From: Escherichia phage mckay | Strand: one strand, 5' to 3' | Sequence record: NC_073073.1 | Length of the DNA stretch: 44,443 nucleotides | Shown here: one piece after another, positions 9,653 to 44,443 of the stretch | Numbering within the stretch: position 1 is the first letter of the stretch | Layout: each line of letters starts with the position of its first letter | Notes under the pieces: generated by a model | Told to the model about the DNA's origin: nothing | Databases searched by the model: none | Seen by the model: the letters and a program-made list of their open reading frames with translations, nothing else | Program-made: the position numbers and the translations under genes

Positions 9653-9653
9653 A

Positions 9654-11118: not shown

Positions 11119-11585
11119 AATTACTGATTTGCGATTTGGATGGCGTTATTAACGGTTCAAGCGATGCGCGTGCCGACCTGGTGCCGGGGATAAAAACGAA
11201 ATCAACCTTTTGGGCAAAGTGGCACAAAGCGCACGTCCGCGAAGATCTGAACATGGATATGCTGCCGCTGCTGCGCATGTACAAAGAGCAAGGCTTCGAG
11301 ATCGCGTATCTGACCAACCGGCAGCGCGAATGTTGGGACACCACCGCCGAGCAATTGGAGGTCTTCCCCGTAGGTCGATTGTTCATGCGCCACATGCTGG
11401 ACGACACCCCGCCGCCAGAGTTTAAGGCGTGCGCCGTTTTCAAAATGGTCTGCTATGCGGACGTGTCGGAACTGGTCATCATTGAAGACTGTCCGAAGAA
11501 CATCGCGGCAATTCGTCGGGCGTGTGGTGATTTGGTCCCGAAAATTTACGCAATAAACGTTGCAAAATTCACTTGCAACCAATAG
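11115..11585 (+). CDS. HAD-superfamily phosphatase-like protein
   Basis: N-terminal MKLLICDLDGVI is the HAD motif I (DxD) signature. Confidence 0.5.
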   Translation: MKLLICDLDGVINGSSDARADLVPGIKTKSTFWAKWHKAHVREDLNMDMLPLLRMYKEQGFEIAYLTNRQRECWDTTAEQLEVFPVGRLFMRHMLDDTPPPEFKACAVFKMVCYADVSELVIIEDCPKNIAAIRRACGDLVPKIYAINVAKFTCNQ

Positions 11586-12814: not shown

Positions 12815-14091
12815 TTATTTACCTTCCAGCTTCTCCACTTTATGCAACAGGTGGACGAAGGCGGCACACAGATCCATTAACAGAACGTTACTATCCAAAG
12901 ACAGCACATCGTCGGTATACCCGATCTCCTTGCGGTCGACTACAACCTCATTCCCTTCCTCGTCAACCCCCTTGACGTCCTCATAAATGGCGTAACCCGG
13001 CAGCAAATGCACGTATTCCGGGTCAATCCTTGCCAGGTCCTGCGCGATAAGGCCGTATCGCTGTACGTCCGACTCCTTATACTTGAACATTGCCGGAAGC
13101 CATTGTCGAACTCGGTTGTAGCTTTCCTCGCCGTCAGTGTATTGGATTTCTTTTTTAAGGTCGCGGTCCGATAGCGGCGCTTTCTGGAACTCGTTAACCG
13201 AAGGGTTGCCGCTGTTACCACTAATCAGCCTTTGGTCTGGCATAAAGCGGAATAGCGCCTCGGAAACACCGTCCTTCCACGTATGAATCCGGTAGTCCGA
13301 CATTTGAGTGTTACGAGAGCGAACAATGCCTGCGCGCACCCAGTCGGCGTACCATTTGTGCATGGTGAAGCCTACCCAACTGTCAGCCCCATACGATACG
13401 TTAGACAGAACTAAGCCGTTTCTTTCGACGTCATTGAATACTAATGACTCCCCACCATTCAGACGTAATGTTGCGTGTTTAACGTTACTATCATCACCAA
13501 CGCCAAGATTAGCGCGTGCCGACGATTTATCTGCGACGTCTGCCAGGTTCTGCGACTTCTTCATGAATTGCGTAGGGTCGATCGCGTTTTTGAAGTCTTC
13601 GGCCTCATTGCGAAATCCTTGCGCTGCTGCTTCAGATGCCGCGGCTTGTTGTTGCAGGTTGCGCATTTCAACGGGGTCAACTTCCTTCAGCAATTGCGAC
13701 AGATAGCCCCACGACATGCCCTGCATAACTTGCCCGTTCGGCAGCGTTACCGTGACTTCTTCTTCGTCTCCGAAGATGGCACGCCAGTTGTTTTCGTCTG
13801 CGATCATCAAGCGCAACGCTTTCTGTGCCTGTACTGTTACGCCCATCGTTGCCAGCGACATGGTATCGCGCTTAACGCCATCCCACGCGAGGTCTGTTGC
13901 CGTGGGTCCGTCGAACGGCAGCACCAGCGTAAGCGCGGTGTCGCTTTCAACTGACGCGATAGCAACAGTGTATGGGACTTGCCCTACTACCAGCGTTAAG
14001 AAGTCGCCAGCGGTAAACGCGGTAAACGTCGTGCCTACCCCGACAACCTCCTTGCTGTTATTCGTTACGGATAGTGTACCCGCTGCCATAG
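12815..14091 (-). CDS. Tail fibre protein with C-terminal intramolecular chaperone (peptidase S74-like) domain
   Basis: Start taken at ATG 14091 (MAAGTLSV, GAGGA RBS) rather than ORF-track 14116. C-terminal LSDRDLKKEIQY...YGLIAQDLARIDPEYV matches the auto-cleaving chaperone domain of tail fibres/endosialidases. Confidence 0.7.
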
Positions 14092-14106
14092 CTGAATCCT
14101 CATAAA

Positions 14107-14138
14107 TTGGTTGCATTAATGGTTAAGCAGTGCAATAC
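14107..14138 (+). promoter_or_regulatory. TTGGTTGCA-containing promoter-like element (TTGCAT-17-AATACT)
   Basis: Motif at 14107-14115 in the divergent gap between the tail-fibre gene (-) and the lipoprotein gene (+). Confidence 0.35.
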
Positions 14139-14169
14139 TAAAACTAAACCAAATATAGGAGATGATACC

Positions 14170-14388
14170 ATGAAAACTTTAATTATGATTTGTGCGGTTC
14201 TTTTGTCCGGTTGTGCCGACATGCCGTCTAAAATCTGCGACGCAACATACATGAATAGTGGTATGGAGTATTCCGTCCAGGTGTTTGGGGTCGCCGACTT
14301 TAGCGGGCACAAAATGCTCGAGGCCGGGTATCCGTTCAACTTCCAGTATGTGTCGGTCGACCACTTCAAAAGCACCACCTGCGAATAA
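14170..14388 (+). CDS. Small lipoprotein (72 aa), moron on the opposite strand to the tail genes; Cor-like candidate
   Basis: Start at ATG 14170 (AGGAG RBS); signal peptide MKTLIMICAVLLSGC with lipobox LSGC; own promoter-like motif and terminator. Confidence 0.6.
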   Translation: MKTLIMICAVLLSGCADMPSKICDATYMNSGMEYSVQVFGVADFSGHKMLEAGYPFNFQYVSVDHFKSTTCE

Positions 14389-21607: not shown

Positions 21608-24250
21608 TCATCGTTTGTAAAGTACACCACCCGGTTTGGTCGCTTTCACAATCTCAGCCTTTACCGACTCGGTGATTTGCTTTCCGAACGCCTGCGCGGT
21701 GCGAGGGTCCGGTCCGCTAACACTGGTGTCCGTCTTACCGGTCCCCATGTTAACGTTGGTCGTTACAATCATCCCACCGCCCACACCGGCAGCGGCAACG
21801 CCCAGTTTCCCGTCTGGCCCGCGCTTCAGTGGCATGATGGCCTCGGGTCCGGCCTCACCCATCAATCCTGCGCCCTTAGCGAACGCCTGAACGCCATAAC
21901 TGAAAAAGGTAGGCTGGCTTACCACTTTCCCCGAATAGGCCGCCAGATTGCCTCCTGCGTACGCTCCGCCGTCCGCATTCTTAGTGAGGCCCGAGAAGAT
22001 AGCGCCGAACAATCCGTTTTTGCCGCCGTCGCCACCGAAAGCGCTAACGATCGACTTGAACGCCTGCGAGGTAGCCAGCTTGATTAACTCGCTCAGGATG
22101 GATTTGACCATATCCTTCGCGTTAATCTTGCCCGTCTCGAAAAATTCGTTCATCGTGTCCTGCATAGCGCTGAACGTGAATTTTGTGAGTGACGTCATCT
22201 GCGTATATCCGTTACCCATCTCATCCACGCTATCCTTAAGCCCGCGACTGAATCCATCCCATAGCGAGGCGTTAGCGCCGGTCTGCGCCTCCTGCACTTC
22301 CCGCAGCTTAGACACCGCCTTGTCTATATCGGTATCGTTAGCGCCAACCCTCTTCAGACGGTCGATTAGCTGCAATTCTTCGCGCAGGTTAGCCGCTTCG
22401 CGCGTAGACAGTGCGTAGCCCGCAGCGGTGGCTTTTATCTCGGCGTTCTGATTCTTGAGGAAAGCGTCGACCTGCGCGTGGGCTTTGATCTGCTTCTCTT
22501 TCGCATCCAGCAATTTGGCTTCTTCGACGATCTGCTCGCGGACTTCCTTCACGCGTCCAAATTCGACCATCTGCTGCTTTTCGGCTGCCGTTAGTGCTCT
22601 TTCTTTGCTCGCAGCGATTAACTGCTCATTATCCGCGATCAGCTTGTTTAGGGCCGCTTGAGCGCGTTGCGTGCGGGTCTGCGTCGATGCATTGGCTTCG
22701 ATCTGCTTGCCAGACTCACGAAGCTGGGCTAATTCGCTTCGCGCGACTTCCAGCATTTTCAGACCGGCATCGACTCGAATTGCCGCGGCCTTTTTCGGTG
22801 CGGGGTCTTTGTAGCGTTCGTTGACCTGCTTCACCGCCTCGGCTAGTTCTTTCTCGTTAATAACACCGCGCTTATTCAGCAAATTGAGGCGGGCGATCTC
22901 GTCGGCTCGCCGCTTCGCGTTGGTTGCGTACTCCTTCTCAAACGCGGCGCGGTCGCGGGCGGTGCGGTTTGCCTCCTCGTTCGCCTTTGCTGCTTCATCC
23001 GCGGCGCTGGCGCTGTCTCGCTCTGCACGGTTGCGCAGGGTGAGCGACGCCACTACCTTTTCCTGGGCGACCAGTTCGCTGTAAAGCATGTTAATACGCG
23101 CTTTCTGCGCTTCGGTCATCACCCCACCGGCAGCGTTTACCGCTTTCATCTCGGCATAGTACGCCGTGGTCATGCGCTGCAAGGACTCACGCGCTTTCAT
23201 CTCGGACTCATTCGAGGACTGCGCGCGGCCCACATCAAGGATTGCATCCCACATAGATTTAGCTGCCGATGTGACGACGTTCATCGAACGCTCAAGCGTA
23301 CCCATGTTGGACTTAATATCGTTGGTCATAGTGGTAAACGACGCTGCGGCTGTTTTGTTAGCCAGCGCGACCGCGTCTGTCTCGCGACCCATATCCACAA
23401 GCGACTGAACCTGCTGGATCTGCGCTTCGTTTACGACGTGATACTTATCTGCCAGTGCGCGCAAACCGCCTACTGGGTCAGTTGACAGCTTCGCTACCGC
23501 CGCGACAACATCTTCGATCGGCTGGCCCGACGTCTTTGCAAAGTCATTAACCACCTTTGCTAACCCGCCGAAATCCGCTCCGGCTTTAACCCCAGCCGCC
23601 GCCAGTGACTGAATTGTGTCACGCGTCTTGCGGAATGATCCGCCCATGCGCTCGGCGTTCTCGGATAGCACCAGGATCTGGTTTGCAGTGAGGCCGGAAA
23701 TGTTACCTGACAGCGCCAGCGTCTTGTTAAGCGCTGCGACCTGGTTCTCTGCGCGGGACGTAATTGCCACCCCTACGCCTAACGTTGCCGTTAGTGCTGC
23801 AATGCCGATCCCTACCGGACCGAGGACGCCCGCAACATAACGCAGCGTGTTACCAAATCCGCCGAACGCCCCAGTTAACTGCGGTAACTGCTGAAGCATA
23901 ACGCGGTGTACTGGCATCCCCATCTCAAGCGTAACTGCGATATCCTGTAACTGGAATGCGGCGTTACGCGAGGCAAAGCCCAGGTTTTTGGTCGACATGC
24001 CTAACCTGTTGGCAAGTCGCTCCTGTTTCGTCATGCCATCGGCTGCGCGCTGCGATTCAGTCGCCAGCTTTTCCATTCCGCCCGCGGCGTCACTCGTCAC
24101 CTTTTTGGATTTGCCGAGGGTGTCGTTTAATTTCTTAACCTTGTTTTCTGTGTTCTCGGATTTCTGTGCGAAGGAGTCCAGCACAGTATTCGCCGTTCTG
24201 ATTTGTGCAACATCAGCCTTTAGCGTGATGCCTGCTGCCTGATCTGCCAT
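21608..24250 (-). CDS. Tail tape measure protein
   Basis: 880 aa, alpha-helical A/Q/K/E-rich with central hydrophobic segments; follows the G/G-T chaperone gene. Confidence 0.85.
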   Translation of the reverse strand: MADQAAGITLKADVAQIRTANTVLDSFAQKSENTENKVKKLNDTLGKSKKVTSDAAGGMEKLATESQRAADGMTKQERLANRLGMSTKNLGFASRNAAFQLQDIAVTLEMGMPVHRVMLQQLPQLTGAFGGFGNTLRYVAGVLGPVGIGIAALTATLGVGVAITSRAENQVAALNKTLALSGNISGLTANQILVLSENAERMGGSFRKTRDTIQSLAAAGVKAGADFGGLAKVVNDFAKTSGQPIEDVVAAVAKLSTDPVGGLRALADKYHVVNEAQIQQVQSLVDMGRETDAVALANKTAAASFTTMTNDIKSNMGTLERSMNVVTSAAKSMWDAILDVGRAQSSNESEMKARESLQRMTTAYYAEMKAVNAAGGVMTEAQKARINMLYSELVAQEKVVASLTLRNRAERDSASAADEAAKANEEANRTARDRAAFEKEYATNAKRRADEIARLNLLNKRGVINEKELAEAVKQVNERYKDPAPKKAAAIRVDAGLKMLEVARSELAQLRESGKQIEANASTQTRTQRAQAALNKLIADNEQLIAASKERALTAAEKQQMVEFGRVKEVREQIVEEAKLLDAKEKQIKAHAQVDAFLKNQNAEIKATAAGYALSTREAANLREELQLIDRLKRVGANDTDIDKAVSKLREVQEAQTGANASLWDGFSRGLKDSVDEMGNGYTQMTSLTKFTFSAMQDTMNEFFETGKINAKDMVKSILSELIKLATSQAFKSIVSAFGGDGGKNGLFGAIFSGLTKNADGGAYAGGNLAAYSGKVVSQPTFFSYGVQAFAKGAGLMGEAGPEAIMPLKRGPDGKLGVAAAGVGGGMIVTTNVNMGTGKTDTSVSGPDPRTAQAFGKQITESVKAEIVKATKPGGVLYKR

Positions 24251-24314
24251 TATGCAGTCCCCTTTTTTATGCAGTTGCCGATTGATATTGTATCAGCGAT
24301 TTCAAAACAAACCT

Positions 24315-24487
24315 TATTCAGTCTCAGACGAGGGGGGCCATTGACCCCCGTCTAGTCTGAAAGACTGGGGTGCTGTCCCGCTGTCCCGATCGGCTGAAAA
24401 CCGCGGCAGCACTGGCGGGGACGGGGTGCTGTCCCGTTTTGTCCCGCCCCTTGTTTGTCCCGCTTTCTGTCCCGCTTACTTTATGCA
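24315..24487. repeat. Copy A of a ~175-bp noncoding element (imperfect hairpin plus TGTCCCGC iterons)
   Basis: ttattcagtctcagacgaggggggccaTtgacccccgtctagtctgaaagactggg and ggtgctgtcccgTtttgtcccgccccttgtttgtcccgctttCtgtcccgcttaCtttatgca recur nearly identically at 40963-41136. Confidence 0.7.
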
Positions 24488-24637
24488 ATAAAACTGCATA
24501 GGTATGCACATTTACAGGGCGTGACAAAACGGGACGTCCCGCCTGTCCCGCTTTGAGTTTATGCAATGAAAGTGATTAGATATGCGGTTTTACAGAGGCG
24601 GGACAAAACGGGACGTCCCGCCTGTCCCGCTTCATTA
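24480..24637. repeat. Two tandem ~79-bp direct repeats, each ending in the 12-bp palindrome CGGGACGTCCCG plus CCTGTCCCGCTT
   Basis: Palindrome at 24530-24541 and 24609-24620; each unit begins with tttatgcaat(a/g)aaa and contains ttacag(g/a)g. Confidence 0.65.
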
Positions 24638-24958
24638 TGCGGGGTTCTGCTGCGCCATCTCATCAAGCGCGATTCGTTCCATTAGCTTGATATCTTTAAA
24701 CGCGCGCTGCTCGTTTTCGATACCGTGCATCTTAAATAACCACTCCAGCACGCCGTAGTCGATGCCGTATGCGCCACCAAATCCGGTGCGCCATTGCGTG
24801 GAGCAATCTGTGAAGACTGCGACTACCTTCGCGTTGTCGGGCCATAGCGCAACAGGTGGACAAACATCTTCGGGGGCCGCACCCCATAAACTTGCGGCTA
24901 AATCTTCGGAGGGTGGCGGCGGGCCATAAAAGCGTCGCGCCGCCTCAATTAGTTTTTT
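24635..24958 (-). CDS. gpT-like extension reached by programmed -1 frameshift from the chaperone gene (G-T fusion)
   Basis: Slippery heptamer A_AAA_AAC (+ strand gtttttt, 24952-24958) lies just before the chaperone stop; the -1 frame is then open for ~105 codons to TAA at 24635-24637 and has no start codon of its own. Confidence 0.6.
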   Translation of the reverse strand, partial: KKLIEAARRFYGPPPPSEDLAASLWGAAPEDVCPPVALWPDNAKVVAVFTDCSTQWRTGFGGAYGIDYGVLEWLFKMHGIENEQRAFKDIKLMERIALDEMAQQNPA

Positions 24959-25311
24959 TCACGCAATCCCATCAGTTCGAGATAGTACGACGTGTGGAAC
25001 ACACCGAACGCGCGTGGGTAGTTGACCACCAGGCGGCGGACGTTCTCCGAGTTAAATTCGTCTGGCAGATTCCAGCCTTCCGCGACGTGCATGATGGCCT
25101 CGACCATAACGTTAAAGCCGTCCGGGTCATTGTCGTCATATTCCGACAGCTTTCGTTCGGTGTCCTGCATGGTTTGCGAAAATTCGTCGATCGGGCGGTG
25201 GCGGACGGTAAAAGTCATCTTGCCTGGTTCGTTCTCACCTGGGCGCGGGATCTCAATCGGCAGCTTAAAGGTCGGCTTAGGGTCAAGTGTAAAGAGTGGT
25301 GCTTTAGCCAT
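24949..25311 (-). CDS. Tail assembly chaperone (lambda gpG-like)
   Basis: Start taken at ATG 25311 (MAKAPLFTL, GGAG RBS) rather than the ORF-track TTG at 25326; sits between the major tail protein and tape measure genes with a slippery site at its 3' end. Confidence 0.7.
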   Translation of the reverse strand: MAKAPLFTLDPKPTFKLPIEIPRPGENEPGKMTFTVRHRPIDEFSQTMQDTERKLSEYDDNDPDGFNVMVEAIMHVAEGWNLPDEFNSENVRRLVVNYPRAFGVFHTSYYLELMGLREKN

Positions 25312-25326
25312 TGTAGTATTCTCCAA

Positions 25327-25350
25327 TAAAAAAGGGGCCGTGCTGGCCCC
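25327..25350 (-). terminator. Rho-independent terminator/attenuator after the major tail protein gene
   Basis: On the - strand GGGGCCAGCACGGCCCC hairpin followed by TTTTTTT. Confidence 0.6.
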
Positions 25351-25380
25351 ATATTAACACTCGCTATTTAAGCGACCAAA

Positions 25381-26106
25381 TCAAGACAATGCCTCGACCA
25401 GATCCTTACGGTAGATAACCATATCTGACTGCATGGTCAGAGTGGATTGTACCGTTTCCACGTTGTTTACTTCAGCGGACGGAATCTTCTGGAAAGATAC
25501 CTTAGCCGGGTAAATACGAATTTCACCTTTGCCGCTTGCTGCCGCTGGGTTAGTGAACTTGATCACAGTGGTTTTCTGTGTGTCGTCCAGGTCTTCCAGG
25601 ATTGGGCGGATCGGGTCTTCTTCGTCGTGGGTGAAAGTGTAAGTCTGTACCAACGGGTTTTTCGTGGTGTTAAGACTGATTGCGGTGTTCACCTGCAACG
25701 GCTGGAATGTAGTCGTCTGCTGGTCGCCACCAGACACGGCAACGTTAGTAATGAAAGGGAAGTCGATAAAGCCCGACACCTTCACCACTTCGCCCGGAGT
25801 GCCTACGCTGAAAGCGCCGGTCGGGTATTTTGTGACGTCTTCGGTGTCGAAGCGCGCCAGCGTAACGTCGTTGGTGTCCACTTTACCCACGATGAATGCG
25901 CGGTTAAGCGCTCGGACCCACGGGGTTTTAGTGAACATAACAACGTCGCCAACAACCAGACCATGCGAAGCCGCACAAGTAATTACGCAACCTTGCGTAA
26001 GGTCAGAGATTGATGCGGCGGCGTTGGTAGCTGCCGTAACAGCGATGCCGCTACCCAGTACGGACCCAATCTGGACGCTGGACCCGTTAGGAAGTTGATA
26101 ACCCAT
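25381..26106 (-). CDS. Major tail (tube) protein, putative
   Basis: 241 aa; position just upstream of the G/G-T chaperone; followed by a terminator, as is usual for abundant structural genes. Confidence 0.55.
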   Translation of the reverse strand: MGYQLPNGSSVQIGSVLGSGIAVTAATNAAASISDLTQGCVITCAASHGLVVGDVVMFTKTPWVRALNRAFIVGKVDTNDVTLARFDTEDVTKYPTGAFSVGTPGEVVKVSGFIDFPFITNVAVSGGDQQTTTFQPLQVNTAISLNTTKNPLVQTYTFTHDEEDPIRPILEDLDDTQKTTVIKFTNPAAASGKGEIRIYPAKVSFQKIPSAEVNNVETVQSTLTMQSDMVIYRKDLVEALS

Positions 26107-26166
26107 AATGACGCTCCTGTTTAGATATACGGATTAATGATACCGCACGCATAGAATTGCGCCAAA

Positions 26167-26589
26167 TCAGGCGCAACAGGTGTAGGGGACTGTGACCACG
26201 ATGCGGGCACGATCAACATCCTCAATCACCGAACTGGTGTATGGCGCGTCCTGAAGCTGGAACGCGGCACCGGTAAGTCTTACGGCCCGCCACTTATCAG
26301 ACGTCGCGATGGCGTCCGCCAGTTCGCTCGCGTACTGTGTGCCCGTGCCCGCGGGAAATACCACGGCGACCTGATACACGCCTGCATAGATCCGGCCCTT
26401 CTGCTGGAAGCCCACAAACTGGGTCGGGGCCGGAAGCAGATATGGTTCCAGGTAGACACCGCTGCCGTTTGCGTGGTCCCCTTGCACGTTCTCCCAGTTA
26501 ACAAGGATCGGTCGCTGGCTGGTGCTCAGGCTTACCGATAAATCTTCTACCACGCGGTTAAGCGCCTTGCGGATTAGAGTATTGCTCAT
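26167..26589 (-). CDS. Tail completion / tail terminator-like protein, putative
   Basis: 140 aa; position between the head-tail joining genes and the major tail protein gene; call is by position only. Confidence 0.45.
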   Translation of the reverse strand: MSNTLIRKALNRVVEDLSVSLSTSQRPILVNWENVQGDHANGSGVYLEPYLLPAPTQFVGFQQKGRIYAGVYQVAVVFPAGTGTQYASELADAIATSDKWRAVRLTGAAFQLQDAPYTSSVIEDVDRARIVVTVPYTCCA

Positions 26590-27182
26590 TATTTCACCTT
26601 CGAATTGATTTCTGCCGCTACGACGCGAACAATCCCCGCGGGCGCTTGTTTACTCCAGCCATACTCAAGTCGCTGCGCGTATGGCACGTTGTTAGTAAAC
26701 CAGATCGACCCGTATTCACTGGAATCGTAATGTGCCAGCACTTCACGCCCAGCGGCTAATGTTGCCGTTCCGGCCTTGTCAACGCGGTCAATAGCGCCAA
26801 CAGCCGGGCGGTCGAACGTCACCTGCCAGTTTCCCCGGAAGCGTCCGCCGGTGTAATTCTTCGCGGCCCAGCCACGCTGGCGGAACGTGACGTTGCCGTT
26901 TTTAGTTTTGAATGAGATAAGCACACTGGCGTGCTTCTTCTGCCCGCGCTTCAGTTTGCCGCCATTCTTGCGGCGCTGTGCAGCGTTCACCTTGTTTGCG
27001 TGCTGGCGGGCCATCGCATAAGCCCGGTTAATCTTCCACCGCTTCGGGTCGCCCACCGGCGAGAACTCAATAAGGCGTCCGAGTATTTGCATCCCGTACG
27101 CCCGCACCGCCTTATCGTTGTTCTCCTTCGTCTTATCCACCCACGTAGCAATAGTGGCGGCGAATGAGTAGACTTCAGCCAC
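26589..27182 (-). CDS. Head-tail joining protein (HK97 gp10-like), putative, GTG start
   Basis: 197 aa; GGRFRGNWQVTF recalls the gp10-family motif; GTG start with GAGGGG RBS. Confidence 0.5.
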   Translation of the reverse strand: MAEVYSFAATIATWVDKTKENNDKAVRAYGMQILGRLIEFSPVGDPKRWKINRAYAMARQHANKVNAAQRRKNGGKLKRGQKKHASVLISFKTKNGNVTFRQRGWAAKNYTGGRFRGNWQVTFDRPAVGAIDRVDKAGTATLAAGREVLAHYDSSEYGSIWFTNNVPYAQRLEYGWSKQAPAGIVRVVAAEINSKVK

Positions 27183-37922: not shown

Positions 37923-38414
37923 TTATGCTGCGTTTCGCCCGATTCTCTCGGCAACGTCCCACTGCTTACCATCGAATAGCGCCTGTCTGCCGATTGCACG
38001 ACGGACAAGCCCCTTGAGCACTACCCCGCCTTGCTTGCGGAATTGTGGCAGTGTAGCCCGTACCTTCGCCCAGTCACCCAGGCGGATCGCATCGTCGAAA
38101 TCACCCGCGACGTCGTCCGGCATGATCGGACCTGGACCAGCATTGATAACCAGGTCCACCAGCGCGTCGAATTGCGCCTGATTGATGCTCGGGTGTGCGT
38201 ACTTGTTCACCCAGTTTTCGGCATACGCCACGTCGCGCTTGAGTAGCTCCAGTGCTTCCGCACGGGTAATGCTCCGCGGCGGATTAGTGCCGGTGTGACC
38301 ATAGCCCCAGGTATACAGGCCGCGGGCCTGCTCTTTCTTAGTCGCGAAATACGGCACTGGGCTGAATTGCTCCCATGCTGCCGTAAATCTTAGACCGTTG
38401 TCACTGAATCGCAT
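37923..38414 (-). CDS. Endolysin (phage lysozyme, GH24-like)
   Basis: 163 aa; N-terminal region with E...TWGYGHT(G) resembles the GH24 lysozyme signature; adjacent to holin-like genes. Confidence 0.7.
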   Translation of the reverse strand: MRFSDNGLRFTAAWEQFSPVPYFATKKEQARGLYTWGYGHTGTNPPRSITRAEALELLKRDVAYAENWVNKYAHPSINQAQFDALVDLVINAGPGPIMPDDVAGDFDDAIRLGDWAKVRATLPQFRKQGGVVLKGLVRRAIGRQALFDGKQWDVAERIGRNAA

Positions 38415-38646
38415 GCTTTACCCCATTCAAAACAGCATTACGCAGCGTGCGCAATGCAAACAGCCAGATTAACGCGGTCCAGGTGGTGTCTGATACGTCT
38501 CCTGTTTGCAACAATCCGATAACGCAGACCATCGCCGTTAGCAGATATAACACCCGGCCTAAAATGCCATCCTGGACGGACGGCGCATACACGTTAAACA
38601 GGGACGAAGCCCCTATGATAACAAACAACAGGACGGAGATAATCAT
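38401..38646 (-). CDS. Small membrane protein (holin/antiholin-like)
   Basis: 81 aa with two predicted TM helices; start overlaps the upstream holin stop (ATGA). Confidence 0.5.
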   Translation of the reverse strand: MIISVLLFVIIGASSLFNVYAPSVQDGILGRVLYLLTAMVCVIGLLQTGDVSDTTWTALIWLFALRTLRNAVLNGVKHAIQ

Positions 38647-38933
38647 TTTGCGCCCCCCGGAAGTCGGAACGACTCAATAGTCTCCCTGATCCGGGCGGCT
38701 ATTGGCATCCAGAAGATGGCAGTTACGAAGCCCAACCCGGCAACAGTGCGCTCGCCAGATAAGCCAGCCCACTCGGCAATAGCTGGCGCACCAAATATGG
38801 CACACAAGAAGCCGACCACGATATATAAAACGAAGTTTAGCGGCCCTTTCGTAGCCTCGCCATGAATGCGAGCGCCAACGAAGCCCCCCGCGAGACACGC
38901 GAGGGCGAATAGCCACTCGTTTAGCTTATCCAT
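38643..38933 (-). CDS. Holin, putative
   Basis: 96 aa; multiple hydrophobic helices with charged C-terminus; first gene of the lysis cassette. Confidence 0.55.
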   Translation of the reverse strand: MDKLNEWLFALACLAGGFVGARIHGEATKGPLNFVLYIVVGFLCAIFGAPAIAEWAGLSGERTVAGLGFVTAIFWMPIAARIRETIESFRLPGGAK

Positions 38934-38939
38934 AAAAAA

Positions 38940-38967
38940 GTCCCAGTAAGTTTTATCTCACTGGGAC
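38940..38967 (-). terminator. Terminator-like hairpin just upstream of the holin start
   Basis: On the - strand GTCCCAGT-gagataaaactt-ACTGGGAC followed by TTTTTT then the holin ATG. Confidence 0.45.
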
Positions 38968-38985
38968 TATATCACGCTTGCATAA

Positions 38986-39273
38986 TTAATCGAAAATAGA
39001 CCACTTGCCGACGCCTTTCCACTCCCATCCACTCGACCGGACGGCCTCGAATGTTCGCCCGCCTATCATATCCCGATACCACAGCCACCACATGCGCAAC
39101 CTGGTCGGGTGCTCCGTGATCCCGCGGCGCTTGTATACCTCGAACGTCATGCGGGTAATACTGGCGGCTTCCACTGCAGGCCATACGACGAACATCAGGA
39201 TGCCCAACAGCACCGCGGTAAGCAGGCATAGCCCGCAGATCAAACCAAACCAATAAATCACATCGTGTAGCAT
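38986..39273 (-). CDS. Small membrane protein (95 aa)
   Basis: Start taken at ATG 39273 (MLHDVIYWFGLICGL...); one strong TM segment. Confidence 0.45.
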   Translation of the reverse strand: MLHDVIYWFGLICGLCLLTAVLLGILMFVVWPAVEAASITRMTFEVYKRRGITEHPTRLRMWWLWYRDMIGGRTFEAVRSSGWEWKGVGKWSIFD

Positions 39274-39394
39274 CGAATTGCCCCTTCCGGTTTGCCAATA
39301 TGGCGCGCCCATGCACGCGCCACGAAGTAATTGCGAAACACCCGACCGCCTATCTCAAAGCGGTTGTGCATGAGCATATCACGGATAGACGCAC

Positions 39395-39955
39395 TCATTT
39401 CAGAATCACCGAGCGCGGGTCGATGGCCTTCATGCTGCCGTCTGGTTCGACACGGATAAACCCGACGCCGTAGCTCTTCGCGTCGTCGTTAGCCTGGCGA
39501 ACAGCATACTGCTTGTCAATCAGGTCGCGCATGGCGGCATTCATGCGCGCGTTAACCTGACTGGCATCGTATTTGGTATATGGGTGCTCCGTACGGGTAA
39601 GATCTTTCGCCACGACGCCAGGGCGCTTGAACTGCTTAAGCAAATAGTTCCGGCCTACGCGAGTGAAGTTAATTAAGCCTTCGGGCGGTACGACGCGCTG
39701 TGTATTGCGGCTTTGCAGTATAACGCTGACAGTACTAACGCGCTGGGCAACGAACAGTTTGCCGTCGTTGCTATCACGCAGCACATCCCCGACCCGCACG
39801 TCGTGATGCACAACCTGCAAATGTTTATGTAGGCCGGATTTCTTGTACCAGAATACGCGGTCGCTCGGCTCATGGTACATGCGCACATAGTTCGGCAGCA
39901 CTTCGATCGGGGTAAGGAATCGCCCATTATGTTTATTGCGGAATATCAGTTTCAT
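39395..39955 (-). CDS. Hypothetical protein (186 aa)
   Basis: ORF overlapping the upstream stop by 4 nt; no recognisable motif. Confidence 0.5.
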   Translation of the reverse strand: MKLIFRNKHNGRFLTPIEVLPNYVRMYHEPSDRVFWYKKSGLHKHLQVVHHDVRVGDVLRDSNDGKLFVAQRVSTVSVILQSRNTQRVVPPEGLINFTRVGRNYLLKQFKRPGVVAKDLTRTEHPYTKYDASQVNARMNAAMRDLIDKQYAVRQANDDAKSYGVGFIRVEPDGSMKAIDPRSVILK

Positions 39956-40221
39956 TTCGCCAGTCTCCAGTGTTTGCCTACCCGCTCAACGGCGGGCTTC
40001 CGGCGTAATGTAATACGGATCCCCATTGGTTGCAAGGAGGTCCGCACCCTGAAATCGTGTTGTGCTGCGAACTGGTGCAAGTAGCTAGTCTGCGTCAACG
40101 GCTTCACGTCATCGCGATAGCTCCAGAATATAGATTCGCCCTCAACCGCATTCTTAGCCCATATTCGTATGCAATGCAGGGGAATATGCCACGAAAGCTG
40201 TTTGGCGCGCCTACGGCTCAT
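39952..40221 (-). CDS. Hypothetical basic protein (89 aa)
   Basis: ATG 40221 with AAGAGG RBS; Arg-rich. Confidence 0.45.
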   Translation of the reverse strand: MSRRRAKQLSWHIPLHCIRIWAKNAVEGESIFWSYRDDVKPLTQTSYLHQFAAQHDFRVRTSLQPMGIRITLRRKPAVERVGKHWRLAK

Positions 40222-40230
40222 TTTGGCCTC

Positions 40231-40557
40231 TTATTTCGCAAGCTGGGCGAATAGTTCGCGCTGGGCTTTAATCCGGGCGACGTTTGTCACTGCCGTCTCG
40301 CCGATCCCGAAGCGATACGCCAGGCGCTCACGGGCAAATGCCAGCGCGTAGTCCTGGATGGCGTTCGCCAACGGCTGGATCTCCGCCATCGTGTCGAAGC
40401 GGCGCTCCAGCATACAGGCGATGGCCTGCTGCGTGACGCGAACAATGGACCACGCTGCCGATAGTCTTTCGACCGCTTCCGCTCCTTCACCGGCGAACTC
40501 TGCCGCCTCTTGTGCCGCCGCCATAGCCATTGCGTAATTCCAGATAATCGCTTTCAT
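40231..40557 (-). CDS. Hypothetical protein (108 aa)
   Basis: Ala-rich helical ORF; start overlaps the upstream stop. Confidence 0.5.
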   Translation of the reverse strand: MKAIIWNYAMAMAAAQEAAEFAGEGAEAVERLSAAWSIVRVTQQAIACMLERRFDTMAEIQPLANAIQDYALAFARERLAYRFGIGETAVTNVARIKAQRELFAQLAK

Positions 40558-40751
40558 TGTTCAGTCCTCTTCGTGATAGTTACGCTGTCCAGGAATTGCA
40601 GCAATGCCTCTTGCGCCTTTACCCGCAATCCGGCGTAGTGGCGCGATTTCTTAATGTTGCCGACCATGTACGCTGCGCGTGCTTGCAAATCAGCTTTGTT
40701 CTCGGCCTCAATCAGTTCTAACAGTTCGTCGACCAGGTCTTCGTGTTCCAT
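40554..40751 (-). CDS. Hypothetical small acidic protein (65 aa)
   Basis: Start taken at ATG 40751 (MEHEDLVDELLELIEAENK), which sits ~20 nt downstream of the conserved TATATTGGTTGCACACCAAC element. Confidence 0.45.
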   Translation of the reverse strand: MEHEDLVDELLELIEAENKADLQARAAYMVGNIKKSRHYAGLRVKAQEALLQFLDSVTITKRTEQ

Positions 40752-40764
40752 TGTTCGGTCCTCA

Positions 40765-40820
40765 TGTTGGTGTGCAACCAATATAGCAAGGTGCCAGGCT
40801 GAATGCAACCAATATCAAAC
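40765..40820 (-). promoter_or_regulatory. Promoter-like element for the leftward middle genes (TTGCAT-17-TATATT with TTGGTTGCA motifs)
   Basis: On the - strand ATTGGTTGCAT...TATATTGGTTGCACACCAAC, the same arrangement and near-identical sequence as upstream of the + strand moron at 30229-30250. Confidence 0.45.
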
Positions 40821-40962
40821 ATGCGCATGAAAAAGTTGATCGCTATCTGCTGCAGCTGCAAACTGCATTTTTCACTCAGCATAATACAACTCGCATTGGT
40901 TGCCTAGTTCATCAACGACCGCAATTCACATCATGTTGCCGTGTATTATGCAATCCCGGATT

Positions 40963-41136
40963 TTATTCAGTCTCAGACGAGGGGGGCCACTGACCCCCGT
41001 CTAGTCTGAAAGACTGGGCTTTGTCCCGCCTGTCCCGCCCCTCTGGAAGCCGCGCCATCCGGGCGGGACATGGGGTGCTGTCCCGCTTTGTCCCGCCCCT
41101 TGTTTGTCCCGCTTTTTGTCCCGCTTAGTTTATGCA
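40963..41136. repeat. Copy B of the ~175-bp hairpin-plus-TGTCCCGC-iteron element, next to the primase gene
   Basis: Near-identical to 24315-24487; holds about six TGTCCCGC iterons at roughly 10-13 bp spacing plus an inverted GCGGGACA. Confidence 0.7.
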
Positions 41137-41169
41137 GTTTTAGTGCATAACTATTCATTATATTCACAC

Positions 41170-41284
41170 TACACGGCAACCAATACGACCAGATAAAAAC
41201 ACCTAAAATGGCAACCAATGCGCGCAAAATTTAATCTTTTAGCAATAGGGGAATCCCCACATCGGCAACCAATACGCGCAAAAT
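41170..41284. repeat. Tandem direct repeats: 3x GCAACCAAT and 2x CGCGCAAAATTTAATCTTT
   Basis: GCAACCAAT at 41176, 41211, 41265; CGCGCAAAATTTAATCTTT at 41221-41239 and 41275-41293 (the second copy runs 9 bp past the feature end into the primase stop region); lies between the primase stop and copy B. Confidence 0.55.
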
Positions 41285-43549
41285 TTAATCTTTCAGGTCG
41301 TCATCGGTCGCCGAAAGCGTGATGGGTATACTCGTTTTGATGACGATATTCGACGACCCATAGATGGCCCCGGTGTGCGGATCTGTATAAAAACCAAGTA
41401 CGCCGCGCTCAACCATATCGTCGATTGCCTTCGTCGATGTGCCACCTTTTGCCAATCCCGCCTGGCGGACAATTGCCGATTTACTGAATCCGGTATGGTC
41501 CGGGTTTTCTTCCATCAGTTTTTCCAGCGCCGCATAAAGCACTTTCTCTTTTTCGTTGCGCGGTCCTGCGGCATTCTCCTCCTTAACTGCGGCCTTGCCC
41601 GCGGCCTTCGCCTGTTCGATGGCGAACGGTGCCAGGGCGACCGGTACGAGATACAGGGTCTCGTCGCGCGGCGTGGATGCGATCGGCTTGACGTCCCAAC
41701 CGGCAACGACGTCACCGAAGTCTGGCCCGGTGCTGGTGGACTGGTGTGCTTCGAACGCTTCGGACTTGCGGAGATCAACCTTAACCTTGCACTTGAGCAG
41801 GACGAATCCGCGCGGCGCTTGCTTGATGCCGTTACGTGCCTTTTCGTGATACAGGTTCAATTGGCCTGGCTGGTTGTCGTCAGGCTGTTCCAGGAAGAAC
41901 GCAGAATCGACAGCACCATGCAGCGCGCCGGACCCACGGGGAGATCTGCTGCCGTTTGCACCTTTCGCTGGGTGGTGGATGACGCCCGCACTGCCGCCTG
42001 TGTTTTCCGCAATGGCCTTCAGCGCTTTGACCACTTCGCCCATATCGCTGGCGTTGTTCTCGTCGAACGGTTTAGCATCGGCGGACCGCAACGCAACAGT
42101 CTGGTTGAGTGAGTCGAACGCCACCAGGCCAACCGGTTCGCCGTTGGCGGTGCGGTTGATAAAGCTGATAACTTCACGCAAGCCCGACTTGCTGGTGATA
42201 TCCCAGCCGCGTGATTGCAGGTCGATAATGTGCAGCTTGTCCAGGTCGTGCTCATATTTGATCTGCAGTGCTTCCTTACGCTGGTTGGAGGCTTCTCCGC
42301 CTTCCGCATCGAAATAGAAACAATGAGACTGGACGACCTTCGCACCGCCGAACGGAATACCCGCGGCAACCGCACCCATTTGACCCAGCACGTAGAACGA
42401 TTTACCGATGTTCGATTCGCCAGCCATATACCAGGTCGATTTAAAGTTAATCAGGCCTTCGATGATCGGGTCGTGTTTACTGAATAGTGCGACCGGTTCG
42501 TTATCCAGGTCAGCGTCGGTACATACGCCGTACTCGTCGCCGTCTCCGACCGCATCAACAATGTGGTCATATAAGGATTCGACTTCCTCGTCGTCCAGAC
42601 CTGGCAGGATGGCGGCGATTTGCTTACGCGACATGTTGTGCGGCTCGACGTTCAGGTGGTCCGGTATCCCGATAAGACGTAGCGCCAGGTGCTGGTGTCT
42701 GTTCAGTTCCGAGCAACACTCGTTGCCGGTATGCATACACTTGAAACGGATCTCGCCATCCTTGACCATGATAGCCGTCGACCCTTCGCCGCTGTGCAGA
42801 TGTTCGTTAGGACACGGCACTTCATAACCACGACCGGACGACAGCGGTTCGAATCCTGCCTGGAAGCACCAGTCCAGAATGCCGTCCGCCACGCCGTCAT
42901 CGCCCTGGGTCAGTTCGCGTCGTACTTCCTCTTTTTCCACTCCCAGCTTATCAGCCAGGCGAAGCAGACGACGGACGCGGGCACGTTTGCCGTAGTGACA
43001 CTTAACAACCGATTGCTGGTGAGGCAGGTACATAAGGCGGTTTGTGTCTTTCGTGCAATCATCGAAGTCCACATCTGACAGGCCCAGTTGGTGTAATAGT
43101 GCATACTGTACGCGGCCCAGGTCTTCCGCCGGTACAGGCTTATCGGTGAGCACCAGGAAACGGGCGCAACGCGTGCCGCCCTTCAGCGGGTGGCGGTCGC
43201 CGGTGGTGGTGTGAAATACATGTTCCAGTCCCGCGTCGATGAACGCCTTACGGCAGCGGCGCAGGGTGCGGGTGTCGGTGCGGTCAATATCAAAGAACAG
43301 GATCGAGCGGTCCACCGCACTGGTCTTGCGGCGTAAGCCGTCACTGGTATAAGCCACAATGCCATCGGCCTTACGCTTGCGGCGCGCATACTCCGCTTTA
43401 TCTTCCGTCTTGTTGATATGCACCGAGGATATTTCTTTCGCATCATTGATAAATTCGAAAAACTCTTCGGTAGTCATCCGGAAGTTTTCCGCCCTGGCTT
43501 TTTCGCCTTTTTTAGCGGGTCGTGTTACAGCGAATTTAATTAAGCTCAT
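41285..43549 (-). CDS. DNA primase-helicase (primase-polymerase-like N-terminus, RecA/DnaB-like ATPase, C-terminal wHTH-like)
   Basis: 754 aa; N-terminal ILFFDIDRTD (DxD) with CPNEHLH...C...C zinc-binding-like region; central Walker A GESNIGKS; adjacent to iteron-like repeats. Confidence 0.7.
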   Translation of the reverse strand: MSLIKFAVTRPAKKGEKARAENFRMTTEEFFEFINDAKEISSVHINKTEDKAEYARRKRKADGIVAYTSDGLRRKTSAVDRSILFFDIDRTDTRTLRRCRKAFIDAGLEHVFHTTTGDRHPLKGGTRCARFLVLTDKPVPAEDLGRVQYALLHQLGLSDVDFDDCTKDTNRLMYLPHQQSVVKCHYGKRARVRRLLRLADKLGVEKEEVRRELTQGDDGVADGILDWCFQAGFEPLSSGRGYEVPCPNEHLHSGEGSTAIMVKDGEIRFKCMHTGNECCSELNRHQHLALRLIGIPDHLNVEPHNMSRKQIAAILPGLDDEEVESLYDHIVDAVGDGDEYGVCTDADLDNEPVALFSKHDPIIEGLINFKSTWYMAGESNIGKSFYVLGQMGAVAAGIPFGGAKVVQSHCFYFDAEGGEASNQRKEALQIKYEHDLDKLHIIDLQSRGWDITSKSGLREVISFINRTANGEPVGLVAFDSLNQTVALRSADAKPFDENNASDMGEVVKALKAIAENTGGSAGVIHHPAKGANGSRSPRGSGALHGAVDSAFFLEQPDDNQPGQLNLYHEKARNGIKQAPRGFVLLKCKVKVDLRKSEAFEAHQSTSTGPDFGDVVAGWDVKPIASTPRDETLYLVPVALAPFAIEQAKAAGKAAVKEENAAGPRNEKEKVLYAALEKLMEENPDHTGFSKSAIVRQAGLAKGGTSTKAIDDMVERGVLGFYTDPHTGAIYGSSNIVIKTSIPITLSATDDDLKD

Positions 43550-43559
43550 TGCCGTTGCC

Positions 43560-43889
43560 TTACTTAGAAGTTTTATTATTGCGTACCCAGGAGCGCACTG
43601 TGCTCTGATTAATTCCGGTCAACTCGGCAATCATCGCCCAGGATTTGCCCTCGGCGCGCAAACGGATAACCTGTTTTTTGTATTCTTCCATTTCTTCATT
43701 GTGCTTTTGCAGCTTGCTTGCTGCCGTGCCGTTGAGCAATTCCAGCCTGGCGCGTAATTCTTTTTCGGTAAGTCGCAGACGTTCGATTTCAAATAGCACC
43801 GCACCCACGGCATCGGTATACGCCCAAGACCGGCTTGTCTCACTGCAAACAGTCTTAGTTAACATTTCGATTGCGTCGTCGATATTCAT
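43560..43889 (-). CDS. HTH DNA-binding protein, putative transcriptional regulator
   Basis: 109 aa; C-terminal HTH-like GKSWAMIAELTGINQSTVRSWVRNN; first gene of the leftward unit, immediately downstream of a palindrome. Confidence 0.55.
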   Translation of the reverse strand: MNIDDAIEMLTKTVCSETSRSWAYTDAVGAVLFEIERLRLTEKELRARLELLNGTAASKLQKHNEEMEEYKKQVIRLRAEGKSWAMIAELTGINQSTVRSWVRNNKTSK

Positions 43890-43902
43890 TTTTCTGTCTC
43901 CG

Positions 43903-43919
43903 GTTGGTTAATGACCAAC
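43903..43919. promoter_or_regulatory. Operator-like palindrome GTTGGT-taatg-ACCAAC beside the regulator gene start
   Basis: Perfect 6-bp inverted repeat with 5-bp spacer, ~14 nt upstream of the regulator ATG; a TTGACA-17-TAGTTT promoter-like pair lies just upstream on the - strand. Confidence 0.4.
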
Positions 43920-43962
43920 GAAACTACACCTAAAACCGCAGGGTGTCAACTTCTTTGGAATA

Positions 43963-44055
43963 TTGAAACGGGCGCGCACGCGTGTAATAATACTCCCGTC
44001 TCATTGTCTCTTATTGGTTAGCGCCGTCGCATTTTGCTTCGGCGCTTTTTTTTTT
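43963..44055 (+). ncRNA. Candidate small RNA (promoter TTGAAA-16-TAATAA, ~60 nt transcript, strong intrinsic terminator)
   Basis: -35 TTGAAA (43963-43968) and -10 TAATAA (43985-43990) flank the palindrome CACGCGTG; GCGCCG...CGGCGC hairpin (44021-44045) followed by ten T (44046-44055); no ORF in between. Confidence 0.3.
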
Positions 44056-44066
44056 GAAATTAGTTG

Positions 44067-44096
44067 TTGACACCCATCCTGCAACCAATCTATTAT
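44067..44096 (+). promoter_or_regulatory. Early rightward promoter (TTGACA-18-TATTAT)
   Basis: Consensus -35 TTGACA at 44067-44072, 18-bp spacer containing GCAACCAAT, -10 TATTAT at 44091-44096; ~200 nt upstream of the first + strand gene. Confidence 0.5.
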
Positions 44097-44292
44097 TCAC
44101 CCCGTCGACAGGATGCAGGACGCAAACTGGAGAGGGGCAACGCAGGGGCCGGATCGAAGTGTCAGGATTCCCAACCGTGATTATATAACCCGGTCCACTA
44201 CCCGAACGGGAGAACGCGCAACCGGGCAATATGTTAAGGCCACCGACGAAGTTAACTGCCGACACCTAAACTTAACCAATCGGAGATATACC

Positions 44293-44443
44293 ATGTTTGA
44301 GCAAATCGTAAACCTGATCACTCGCGGCGTAGTAGCACTGGAAACCATCGCTAAGCATTATGAAACCGTTGGCGCTGCCGTTGGTAAACAGGAAGATAAG
44401 AAGCCGTCTAAGGCGAAAAAAGAAGTCGTAGAAGATGACGACG
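44293..44443 (+). CDS. Acidic early protein, N-terminal part (continues at 1-288 across the window end)
   Basis: ATG 44293 with GGAGA RBS; open to the window end and in frame with 1-288 through the 13-bp overlap. Confidence 0.6.
   Translation, partial: MFEQIVNLITRGVVALETIAKHYETVGAAVGKQEDKKPSKAKKEVVEDDD

Follow-up and report, generated by a model that had tools for sequence, protein, structure and literature searches.

The alpha protein of satellite phage P4 binds an octamer at ori and at a distant second site, crr (summarized in PMC4234260). That ori/crr pair is said to have been described by Flensburg and Calendar in 1987, by Ziegelin et al. in 1993 and 1995 and by Yeo et al. in 2002. At oriV of RSF1010, iterons and RepA are combined with hairpin priming signals, ssiA and ssiB, for RepB′ (PMC8567376). 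The origin of pRN1 is a stem-loop just 3′ of a gene for a fused archaeo-eukaryotic primase (AEP), helicase and winged helix, in an operon with a small DNA-binding protein, and that of Bordetella phage BIP-1 is a stem-loop downstream of the replication-protein gene (PMC4234260). Origins of the phage-inducible chromosomal islands (PICIs) of E. coli consist of iteron sets beside pri-rep (PMC6092414). Here, we describe a non-coding module, region B (~40930-41275), next to the primase-helicase gene of Escherichia phage mckay (NC_073073.1; the window below is this whole genome, 44,443 bp). On balance, region B is probably a replication origin, and region A (24251-24634), a related block 16.6 kb away, would then be a second origin or a cis-acting partner.

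A repeat module 3′ of the primase-helicase gene

We favor an origin because the iterons of region B are far above chance expectation and confined to two loci, because one of the least stable duplexes of the genome adjoins the iteron array, because the region begins at the stop codon of the primase-helicase gene, because the same ordered module, each time with its own iterons, lies 3′ of the homologous gene in distant relatives, and because the gene product combines an AEP primase, a RepA-type helicase and a predicted winged helix. Found together, then, are a repeat cluster, an adjacent AT-rich segment and a position next to the initiator gene, with which the module is inherited in six other lineages. 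The comparison with relatives strengthens this putative assignment beyond what a single sequence could show.

An earlier note on this DNA had described the interval as classic origin architecture. The iterons, the AT-rich segment and the initiator-gene neighborhood stand, and the module recurs in relatives; two of the motifs counted in that note, GCAACCAAT and CGCGCAAAATTTAATCTTT, are not origin features, however, and the module is not unique in the genome. The limits given there, the primase stop (41285) and the next gene (40751), agree with the open reading frames (ORFs), and every motif named is present where it was placed. These motifs are of three different kinds: a clustered iteron, a dispersed promoter-associated motif and a gene-end duplication. 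The note had missed that TGTCCCGC forms a second cluster, that a long hairpin lies at 40968-41016 and that GCAACCAAT is scattered over the whole genome. The features of the region, in the direction of transcription, are as follows.

41285..43549, minus strand: ORF of the primase-helicase, 754 aa, with its stop codon at 41285-41287
41124..41274, unstranded: AT-rich, easily melted segment, candidate unwinding element (from GC content and duplex stability)
41144-41156, minus strand: conserved 13-mer GAATAGTTATGCA, inside the AT-rich segment
41130-41136: inverted TGCATAA, inside the AT-rich segment
41022..41124, minus strand: iteron array, consensus RRGCGGGACARM on the coding strand, with copy number and order kept in 15 relatives
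40968..41016, unstranded: long imperfect GC-rich palindrome or hairpin with three nested palindromes (DNA fold)
40934..40942, minus strand: conserved ACGGCAACA element, ACGGCARCA in its cross-genus form, with the hairpin on one side and the downstream promoter on the other
40774..40813, minus strand: sigma-70-like promoter of the downstream operon, with -35 TTGCAT (40803-40808), a 17-bp spacer and -10 TATATT (40780-40785)

The earlier count of about six TGTCCCGC iterons is accurate: the array (41022-41124) holds six direct copies (41022, 41031, 41079, 41089, 41105 and 41117) and one inverted copy (41063), with core-to-core spacings of 9, 33, 15, 10, 16 and 12 bp. This is a true clustered iteron. 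Genome-wide, TGTCCCGC occurs 15 times against 2.1 expected, a number reached in 0 of 100 shuffles, and 14 of the 15 copies fall in two loci, 41022-41124 and 24374-24630.

Downstream of the array, the palindrome folds as DNA with energies of -13.4 and -14.1 kcal/mol on the two strands (z -2.5 and -3.1), and 55 of 56 bases are identical to its copy in region A (24319-24367). What follows the hairpin is not a U tract; it is AATAAAAT in region B and AATAAGG in region A, and a terminator scanner found no terminator at 40968-41016 or 24319-24367 on either strand. We read the module as a probable DNA site because the region is non-coding by a codon-position test, has no Rfam family and lacks a terminator-like U tract.

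On the other side of the array, both the low GC content and the low duplex stability of the AT-rich stretch are borne out. GC is 0.33-0.38 across 41100-41240, compared with ~0.545 for the genome, and by nearest-neighbor energy 41124-41274 ranks second to third in the genome for low duplex stability, not first. Within the region, TTATGCAC fits a DnaA box at 8 of 9 positions; the last two positions vary between relatives, so that a DnaA box is a lead at most. The promoter of the downstream operon, read from the sequence, is composed of two ATTGGTTGCA sites and scores under the -35 threshold of a consensus promoter scanner. We rejected a sigma-54 reading of CTGGCACCTTGC near 40790, since the spacing does not fit TGGCAC-N5-TTGC.

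Region A and the module in relatives

The window is a complete Dhillonvirus (HK578/SO-1-like) genome. A megablast search with 38000-44443 matched 178 phage records, nearly all of them Escherichia Dhillonviruses at 90-93% identity, among them SECphi4, TheodorHerzl, McMelon, HK578 and SO-1. Near region B the gene order, all on the minus strand, is a helix-turn-helix (HTH) gene, the primase-helicase gene (the only one in the genome, at whose stop codon region B begins), a 533-bp non-coding region and small genes from 40751, where the first ATG is preceded by GAGGA. In McMelon, an apparent 137-bp intergenic region proved to be an annotation artefact, and the full module is present there. The second copy of the module lies among the tail genes, between those for the tail chaperone and the tape measure, so that region B is not unique.

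24251..24634, minus strand: region A, second iteron and hairpin block, flanked by the stop of the tail-chaperone frameshift ORF (24635) and the start of the tape-measure gene (24250)
24319-24367: region A hairpin, copy of 40968-41016

The block common to the two regions spans ~173 bp, of which 141 columns are identical (81.5%), and its hairpin and four-iteron parts are almost identical between them. A core block of seven iterons (24375-24473) repeats the spacings of region B. Region A has in addition two 79-bp units with four GGGAC cores each (24512-24645), and contains seven exact TGTCCCGC copies in 24374-24630; it has no ATTGGTTGC sites, and a promoter scan found no promoter-like site after it. 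Both regions stand at fixed positions in more than 150 Dhillonvirus genomes. Six direct cores and one inverted core are present in region B of all 15 Dhillonvirus loci compared, and region A is kept in 14 loci with ~10 direct and 4-5 inverted cores. The 2009 record of SO-1 already carries repeat_region entries named 'region A' and 'region B', with a note that opens with the word 'possible'.

Around region A, the 385 bp of non-coding DNA between the chaperone frameshift ORF and the tape-measure gene is unusual. That ORF (24635..24949, minus strand) has 104 codons and no start codon, is near-identical to SO-1 gp16 and directly follows 24949..25326; in all likelihood it extends the tail assembly chaperone by a frameshift. 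GC skew is near zero for ~3 kb (24000-27000) around region A and the major tail gene, and steadily negative in the flanks.

To follow the module further, we drew relatives of the primase-helicase from IMG/VR, GenBank phages and metagenome contigs. Directly 3′ of the homologous gene, the ordered module is present in three unclassified phages (L025, L027 and L030), in Cornellvirus FSL SP-031 and in Eiauvirus eiAU-183, whose proteins are 43-47% identical to that of the window (37% for L030). On the coding strand, it runs from one or two copies of the GAATAGTTATGCA 13-mer through 3-4 direct and 1-2 inverted iterons to a spacer, two more direct iterons, the long hairpin, ACGGCARCA and a sigma-70 promoter. 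The iteron differs by lineage (CCGACAG, GGGATAA, GGGGATG, GGGGGAGA and TCGCCCCG in these relatives), while copy number, order and orientation are retained. In all relatives with the module, a hairpin is found at this place. The 13-mer is kept in L018, L025, L027, L030 and SP-031 and is invariant in 15 Dhillonviruses, and the ACGGCARCA element is found in the window, the same five relatives and eiAU. Closer to the window, L285-L287 (67-70% protein identity) carry the module after the gene and retain the Dhillonvirus hairpin and ATTGGTTGC sites; their iterons are GCGGGACA in L285, GTGTGGCA in L286 and GGTGCCA in L287. Such fast turnover among phages of the same host argues for a phage-encoded binding specificity rather than a host factor.

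Regions A and B of eiAU-183 have a 52-nt block of their own in common (88% identity). With lineage-specific A/B blocks in both Dhillonvirus and Eiauvirus, the two regions appear to evolve in concert in two genera, which suggests that one factor reads both. For L025 and L027, no region A was among the matches listed in IMG/VR scans with 14-mers of the foreign iterons, which returned unrelated contigs, and a locus search based on the tape measure gave close relatives only. Searches of plasmids and E. coli genomes did not match the module.

Several side observations came from the same records. The AT-rich element with GAATAGTTATGCA is conserved at the nucleotide level across genera (41144-41156 in the window, 13767-13808 in FSL SP-031, our L004), and Enterobacter phage phiEap-2 matches the 42-nt AT-rich stretch of SP-031 at 97.6% identity, Pantoea phage AH01 at 92%. 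Some GC-rich relatives have other repeat clusters ~1.5 kb downstream of the primase-helicase gene (in L021 and L026, pairs of AAGGCCC; in L028, CAGCATGG six times in tandem); these may be equivalent sites. Assemblies appear to break at the A/B repeat: L289, a 27.6-kb metagenome contig, ends ~110 bp past the primase-helicase stop, and both ends of the eiAU-183 record (L005) fall inside its region A, overlapping by 16 nt.

The two other motifs of the earlier note call for a different reading.

41210-41242 and 41264-41296, minus strand: two 33-nt direct repeats, 54 bp apart, containing both 19-mers
41265-41273, 41211-41219 and 41176-41184, minus strand: three ATTGGTTGCC sites, local copies of a dispersed 15-copy motif

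The 19-mer CGCGCAAAATTTAATCTTT does occur exactly twice (41221 and 41275), with no copy expected. The 33-nt repeats that contain it are a 54-bp tandem duplication of the last primase codons, the stop codon and one ATTGGTTGCC site. Since 9 of 15 Dhillonvirus loci lack this duplication (6 of 15 have it), it is dispensable, a copy of the gene end and not an origin feature. The three GCAACCAAT repeats are likewise present (41176, 41211 and 41265), the ATTGGTTGCC site at 41176 being invariant in 15 relatives, but the motif is dispersed: three more copies lie in the same intergenic region (40774, 40805 and, inverted, 40895) and nine elsewhere, for a total of 15 against 0.62 expected (0 of 100 shuffles get to 15). 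On the sense strand GCAACCAAT reads ATTGGTTGC, and it stands mostly 24-200 nt upstream of transcription units; the ATTGGTTGC(A) positions outside this intergenic region are 6711, 9653, 9670, 11575, 14106, 30219, 30233, 40025 and 44081. Its TTGCA makes a -35-like hexamer for a TATATT -10, at 17-18 bp, that overlaps another copy of the motif. This promoter-type ATTGGTTGCA arrangement recurs at 9653/9670, 30219/30233, 40805/40774 and 14106, with a perfect palindrome at 11575. We take GCAACCAAT as a regulatory or promoter motif, not an origin repeat; it looks like an operator or activator box of a phage regulator. In Edwardsiella phage eiAU-183 the ATTGGTTGC motif is enriched (20 copies against 0.7 expected), and L030 and SP-031 have the variant CAGCCAAC. 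The least stable duplex of the genome, 14055-14205 (GC 0.25-0.36), adjoins the ATTGGTTGCA site at 14106 and the beginning of ORF 14107..14388, which is on the plus strand among minus-strand tail genes.

Candidate iteron reader, proposed mechanism and alternatives

Two proteins of the early operon are relevant to how the iterons might be recognized.

aa 1-~345 of the primase-helicase: AEP primase with zinc finger (fold match)
aa 357-531: RepA-type helicase, AAA_25 (Pfam)
aa ~664-734: winged helix (modelled, high confidence)
C-terminus, nucleotides 41288-41305: conserved acidic tail DDDLKD
43560..43889, minus strand: gene of the 109-aa HTH protein, first of the operon, HTH_23 / sigma-70 region-4-like (Pfam)

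AAA_25, the family of the RSF1010 RepA-type helicase, is the sole Pfam match in the primase-helicase, and RSF1010 RepB′ is among the top matches of the AEP primase fold; a PDB sequence search with the protein did not match P4 alpha. All relatives have an acidic C-terminal tail (DEDLEN, DDLGD and similar outside the window), which is similar to the tails through which T7 gp4 and gp2.5 make contact with polymerase and SSB (single-stranded DNA-binding protein). Among the phage genes are also those for a gp2.5-like SSB and a Pol I-type polymerase.

Across five phages, which among them have three different iterons, the HTH of the small protein does not vary. Because it stays constant while the iterons change, the 109-aa protein cannot set iteron specificity, and we rejected it as the iteron binder; it is instead a candidate binder of ATTGGTTGC, which is as invariant as the HTH itself. 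The C-terminal winged helix of the primase-helicase is the most likely candidate for the iteron reader. A few of its positions track iteron type (S691/R/A, S733/G/A and the first residue of helix 3, GGT versus GGS), a weak co-variation.

From these observations we infer a mechanism. The early operon would yield the HTH protein and the primase-helicase. A phage-specific DNA-binding module, likeliest the C-terminal winged helix, would then sit on the GCGGGACA iterons, whereupon the neighboring AT-rich segment with the GAATAGTTATGCA 13-mer may open and the RepA-type helicase ring be loaded at the melted DNA. On unwinding, the long palindrome and the inverted iteron pairs would form single-stranded hairpins, and these could set the first-primer sites for the AEP primase domain, with the acidic tail perhaps linking the primase-helicase to the T7-like SSB and the polymerase of the phage. 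Region A would be bound by the same factor and act as a second origin, or as a partner of region B in the way that P4 crr acts with P4 ori.

Several points weigh against an origin at region B. GC skew and cumulative skew have no inflection at region A or B and track gene orientation only; as the skew follows transcription, it is uninformative on the origin. The literature and records searched contain no mapped Dhillonvirus replication origin. Unlike in PICI origins, GC-rich DNA separates the two iteron sets, with the AT-rich part lateral. Region B also holds a promoter and operator-like sites, so that its conservation is partly transcriptional. The putative recognition helix 3 is almost unchanged between L285 and L287, whose iterons differ, and L285 has the iteron of the window at just 50-57% identity across the C-terminal region. 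Cornellvirus lacks region A, which makes the second locus non-essential to the system, and the GC-rich relatives (L021-L028) have the same protein, winged helix included, with no module right after the gene.

The main rival is a transcriptional control module, so placed because region B has a promoter and operator-like sites and because both regions lie in one long co-oriented transcription unit. Region B would mark the boundary between early and middle genes and region A a point inside the tail operon, the hairpin would be an attenuator or processing site, and the iterons would bind a phage regulator of read-through or of the downstream promoter. We regard this as possible but rather unlikely. 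Regions A and B do lie inside the same 30-kb co-oriented gene block, the operator-like ATTGGTTGCA sites beside the sigma-70-like promoter of region B recur at other promoters, and in L025 and L027 the ACGGCARCA and CGGCAGCG elements stand just upstream of clear TTGACA-17-TATTAT promoters. A terminator is also common in siphoviruses between the major tail/chaperone genes and the tape-measure gene, which we count for this explanation. The Dhillonvirus hairpin, however, is followed by no U tract and is not a terminator to the scanner, and nothing promoter-like follows region A. One inverted iteron per array and the perfect palindromes of region A fit the binding of double-stranded DNA rather than an RNA signal. 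Furthermore, the only DNA-binding protein encoded nearby keeps its HTH while the iterons change, and fast-changing specificity, a typical trait of origin-initiator pairs, would be difficult to account for in a regulator of a lytic phage.

Arrays at two distant loci, with direct and inverted copies, might also serve packaging, partition or DNA organization, as sites for the terminase small subunit or for a ParB-like or nucleoid-like factor, and several assemblies break inside regions A and B. This seems improbable: the terminase genes are near neither region, the A/B repeat itself accounts for the breaks, and the module is inherited with the primase-helicase gene across genera whose structural modules differ.

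Very improbable, in our estimate, are genes for small non-coding RNAs (such as a protein-sponge RNA in which GGGACA recurs and which ends at the hairpin) or for a true small protein. A stable hairpin does follow a series of GGA-containing motifs in the same orientation, yet some motif copies are inverted, a promoter scan found no promoter ahead of the array, and Rfam gave no match beyond chance: none at the gathering score over the whole window, and at a permissive threshold only sub-threshold eukaryotic matches (E 0.07-0.41). ORFs of 84 codons (40973..41227) and 80 codons (24324..24566), both on the minus strand, run across the regions, and many Dhillonvirus records annotate them as 'hypothetical protein'. 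We rejected them as genes: in these ORFs, which span the iteron and hairpin blocks, variable columns divide 40/32/28 among codon positions 1, 2 and 3 and so give no sign of coding, and the ORFs have no PHROG or Pfam family and are not kept in relatives with other iterons. Finally, the two ~173-bp block copies at 81.5% identity could be a selfish or neutral repeat, such as an insertion like a miniature inverted-repeat transposable element or a recombination scar duplicated by chance, to which we give hardly any credence given their fixed positions in >150 Dhillonvirus genomes, the lineage-specific A/B pair also in Eiauvirus, the lack of copies in E. coli genomes or plasmids, and the absence of visible terminal inverted repeats or target duplications.

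If regions A and B are origin elements, they bear on phage defense. According to a 2026 preprint, P2 OLD restricts HK578, with escape mapping to this helicase-primase and to the promoter of its operon; the trigger of OLD is hairpins at the lambda origin, and the preprint does not map the HK578 origin itself (bioRxiv 10.64898/2026.07.10.737580). We count these results, together with the precedents of pRN1, RSF1010 and the PICIs, in favor of an origin. Regions A and B are a defined place to look for the hairpin signal that the OLD finding implies. A wider proposal, which we offer as speculation and hold doubtful as a whole, is that one polypeptide with AEP, RepA and winged-helix parts recognizes the octamer iterons, which evolve fast, at both loci (16.6 kb apart); that the tail-operon locus is a second origin or a crr-like looping partner; that extruded hairpins give a replication-dependent signal to ABC-ATPase defenses (P2 OLD, perhaps Lamassu); and that escape from competitors or defense drives the iteron swaps.

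Dhillonviruses are among the most often isolated E. coli siphoviruses and are included in the BASEL collection (PMC8594841). With this candidate origin, which is located to the base, has a second locus and comes with natural iteron-swap variants, the specificity between initiator and origin can be tested directly in them. There is also a practical side, as many GenBank records carry spurious 'hypothetical protein' genes over regions A and B, and assemblies tend to break there.

Comparison with known replication systems

The kind of element is already known, and regions A and B were already flagged in the SO-1 record; the literature searched contained no paper describing them. What is new is the composite layout, iterons and hairpin with a second copy in the tail operon, together with the fused AEP-RepA-winged-helix protein, the natural iteron swaps and the conservation of the module across genera. 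By analogy, the gene product and its module resemble the P4, IncQ, pRN1 and PICI origin systems, each in part.

Among phages, the lambdoids offer a likeness in that the specificity of the O-protein iterons changes between close relatives. SPP1 offers another: of oriR and oriL, one origin-like site lies in the replication module and the second in the late region, as regions B and A do. In lambda and at SPP1 oriR, unlike here, the origin is inside the initiator gene, and the initiators are unrelated. The helicase differs as well, being the host DnaB for lambda and the separate G40P for SPP1. In SaPI and the E. coli PICIs, short iterons adjoin primase/helicase genes and related elements have allelic variants of the iteron, as here. 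Their iteron sets flank an AT-rich center, whereas the center is GC-rich and the AT-rich part lateral in region B, and PICI proteins are not homologous to those of the window as far as tested.

The gene arrangement resembles that of the Sulfolobus plasmid pRN1 and of BIP-1, in which a small DNA-binding protein and an AEP primase-helicase-winged-helix protein form an operon, with a large stem-loop directly 3′ of the latter's gene as the essential cis element. pRN1, with a superfamily 3 (SF3) helicase, lacks iterons; in the phage, the stem-loop comes after an iteron array and an AT-rich block. With P4, the phage has in common the joining of primase, helicase and C-terminal winged helix in one polypeptide, and an octamer iteron, direct and inverted, at two loci kilobases apart. 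In P4 alpha the primase is of another type and the helicase belongs to SF3, as opposed to the AEP primase and RepA-type AAA_25 helicase found here, so the resemblance is functional and not homologous, and the protein falls outside the alpha family. Other departures from P4 are the 16.6 kb between the loci, the location of the second within the tail operon and the long hairpin in the repeated block, and iteron binding is here a prediction.

The IncQ plasmid RSF1010 supplies an enzymatic parallel. As at its oriV, iterons, an AT-rich segment and hairpin-forming palindromes accompany a RepA-type helicase and a RepB′-like primase. The DNA itself had no similarity to any plasmid in a plasmid search. 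The iterons are irregularly spaced 8-bp units rather than 20-mers, and one near-symmetric palindrome takes the place of separate ssiA and ssiB. Whereas RepA, RepB′ and RepC are separate proteins in RSF1010, in the phage they may be fused in one.

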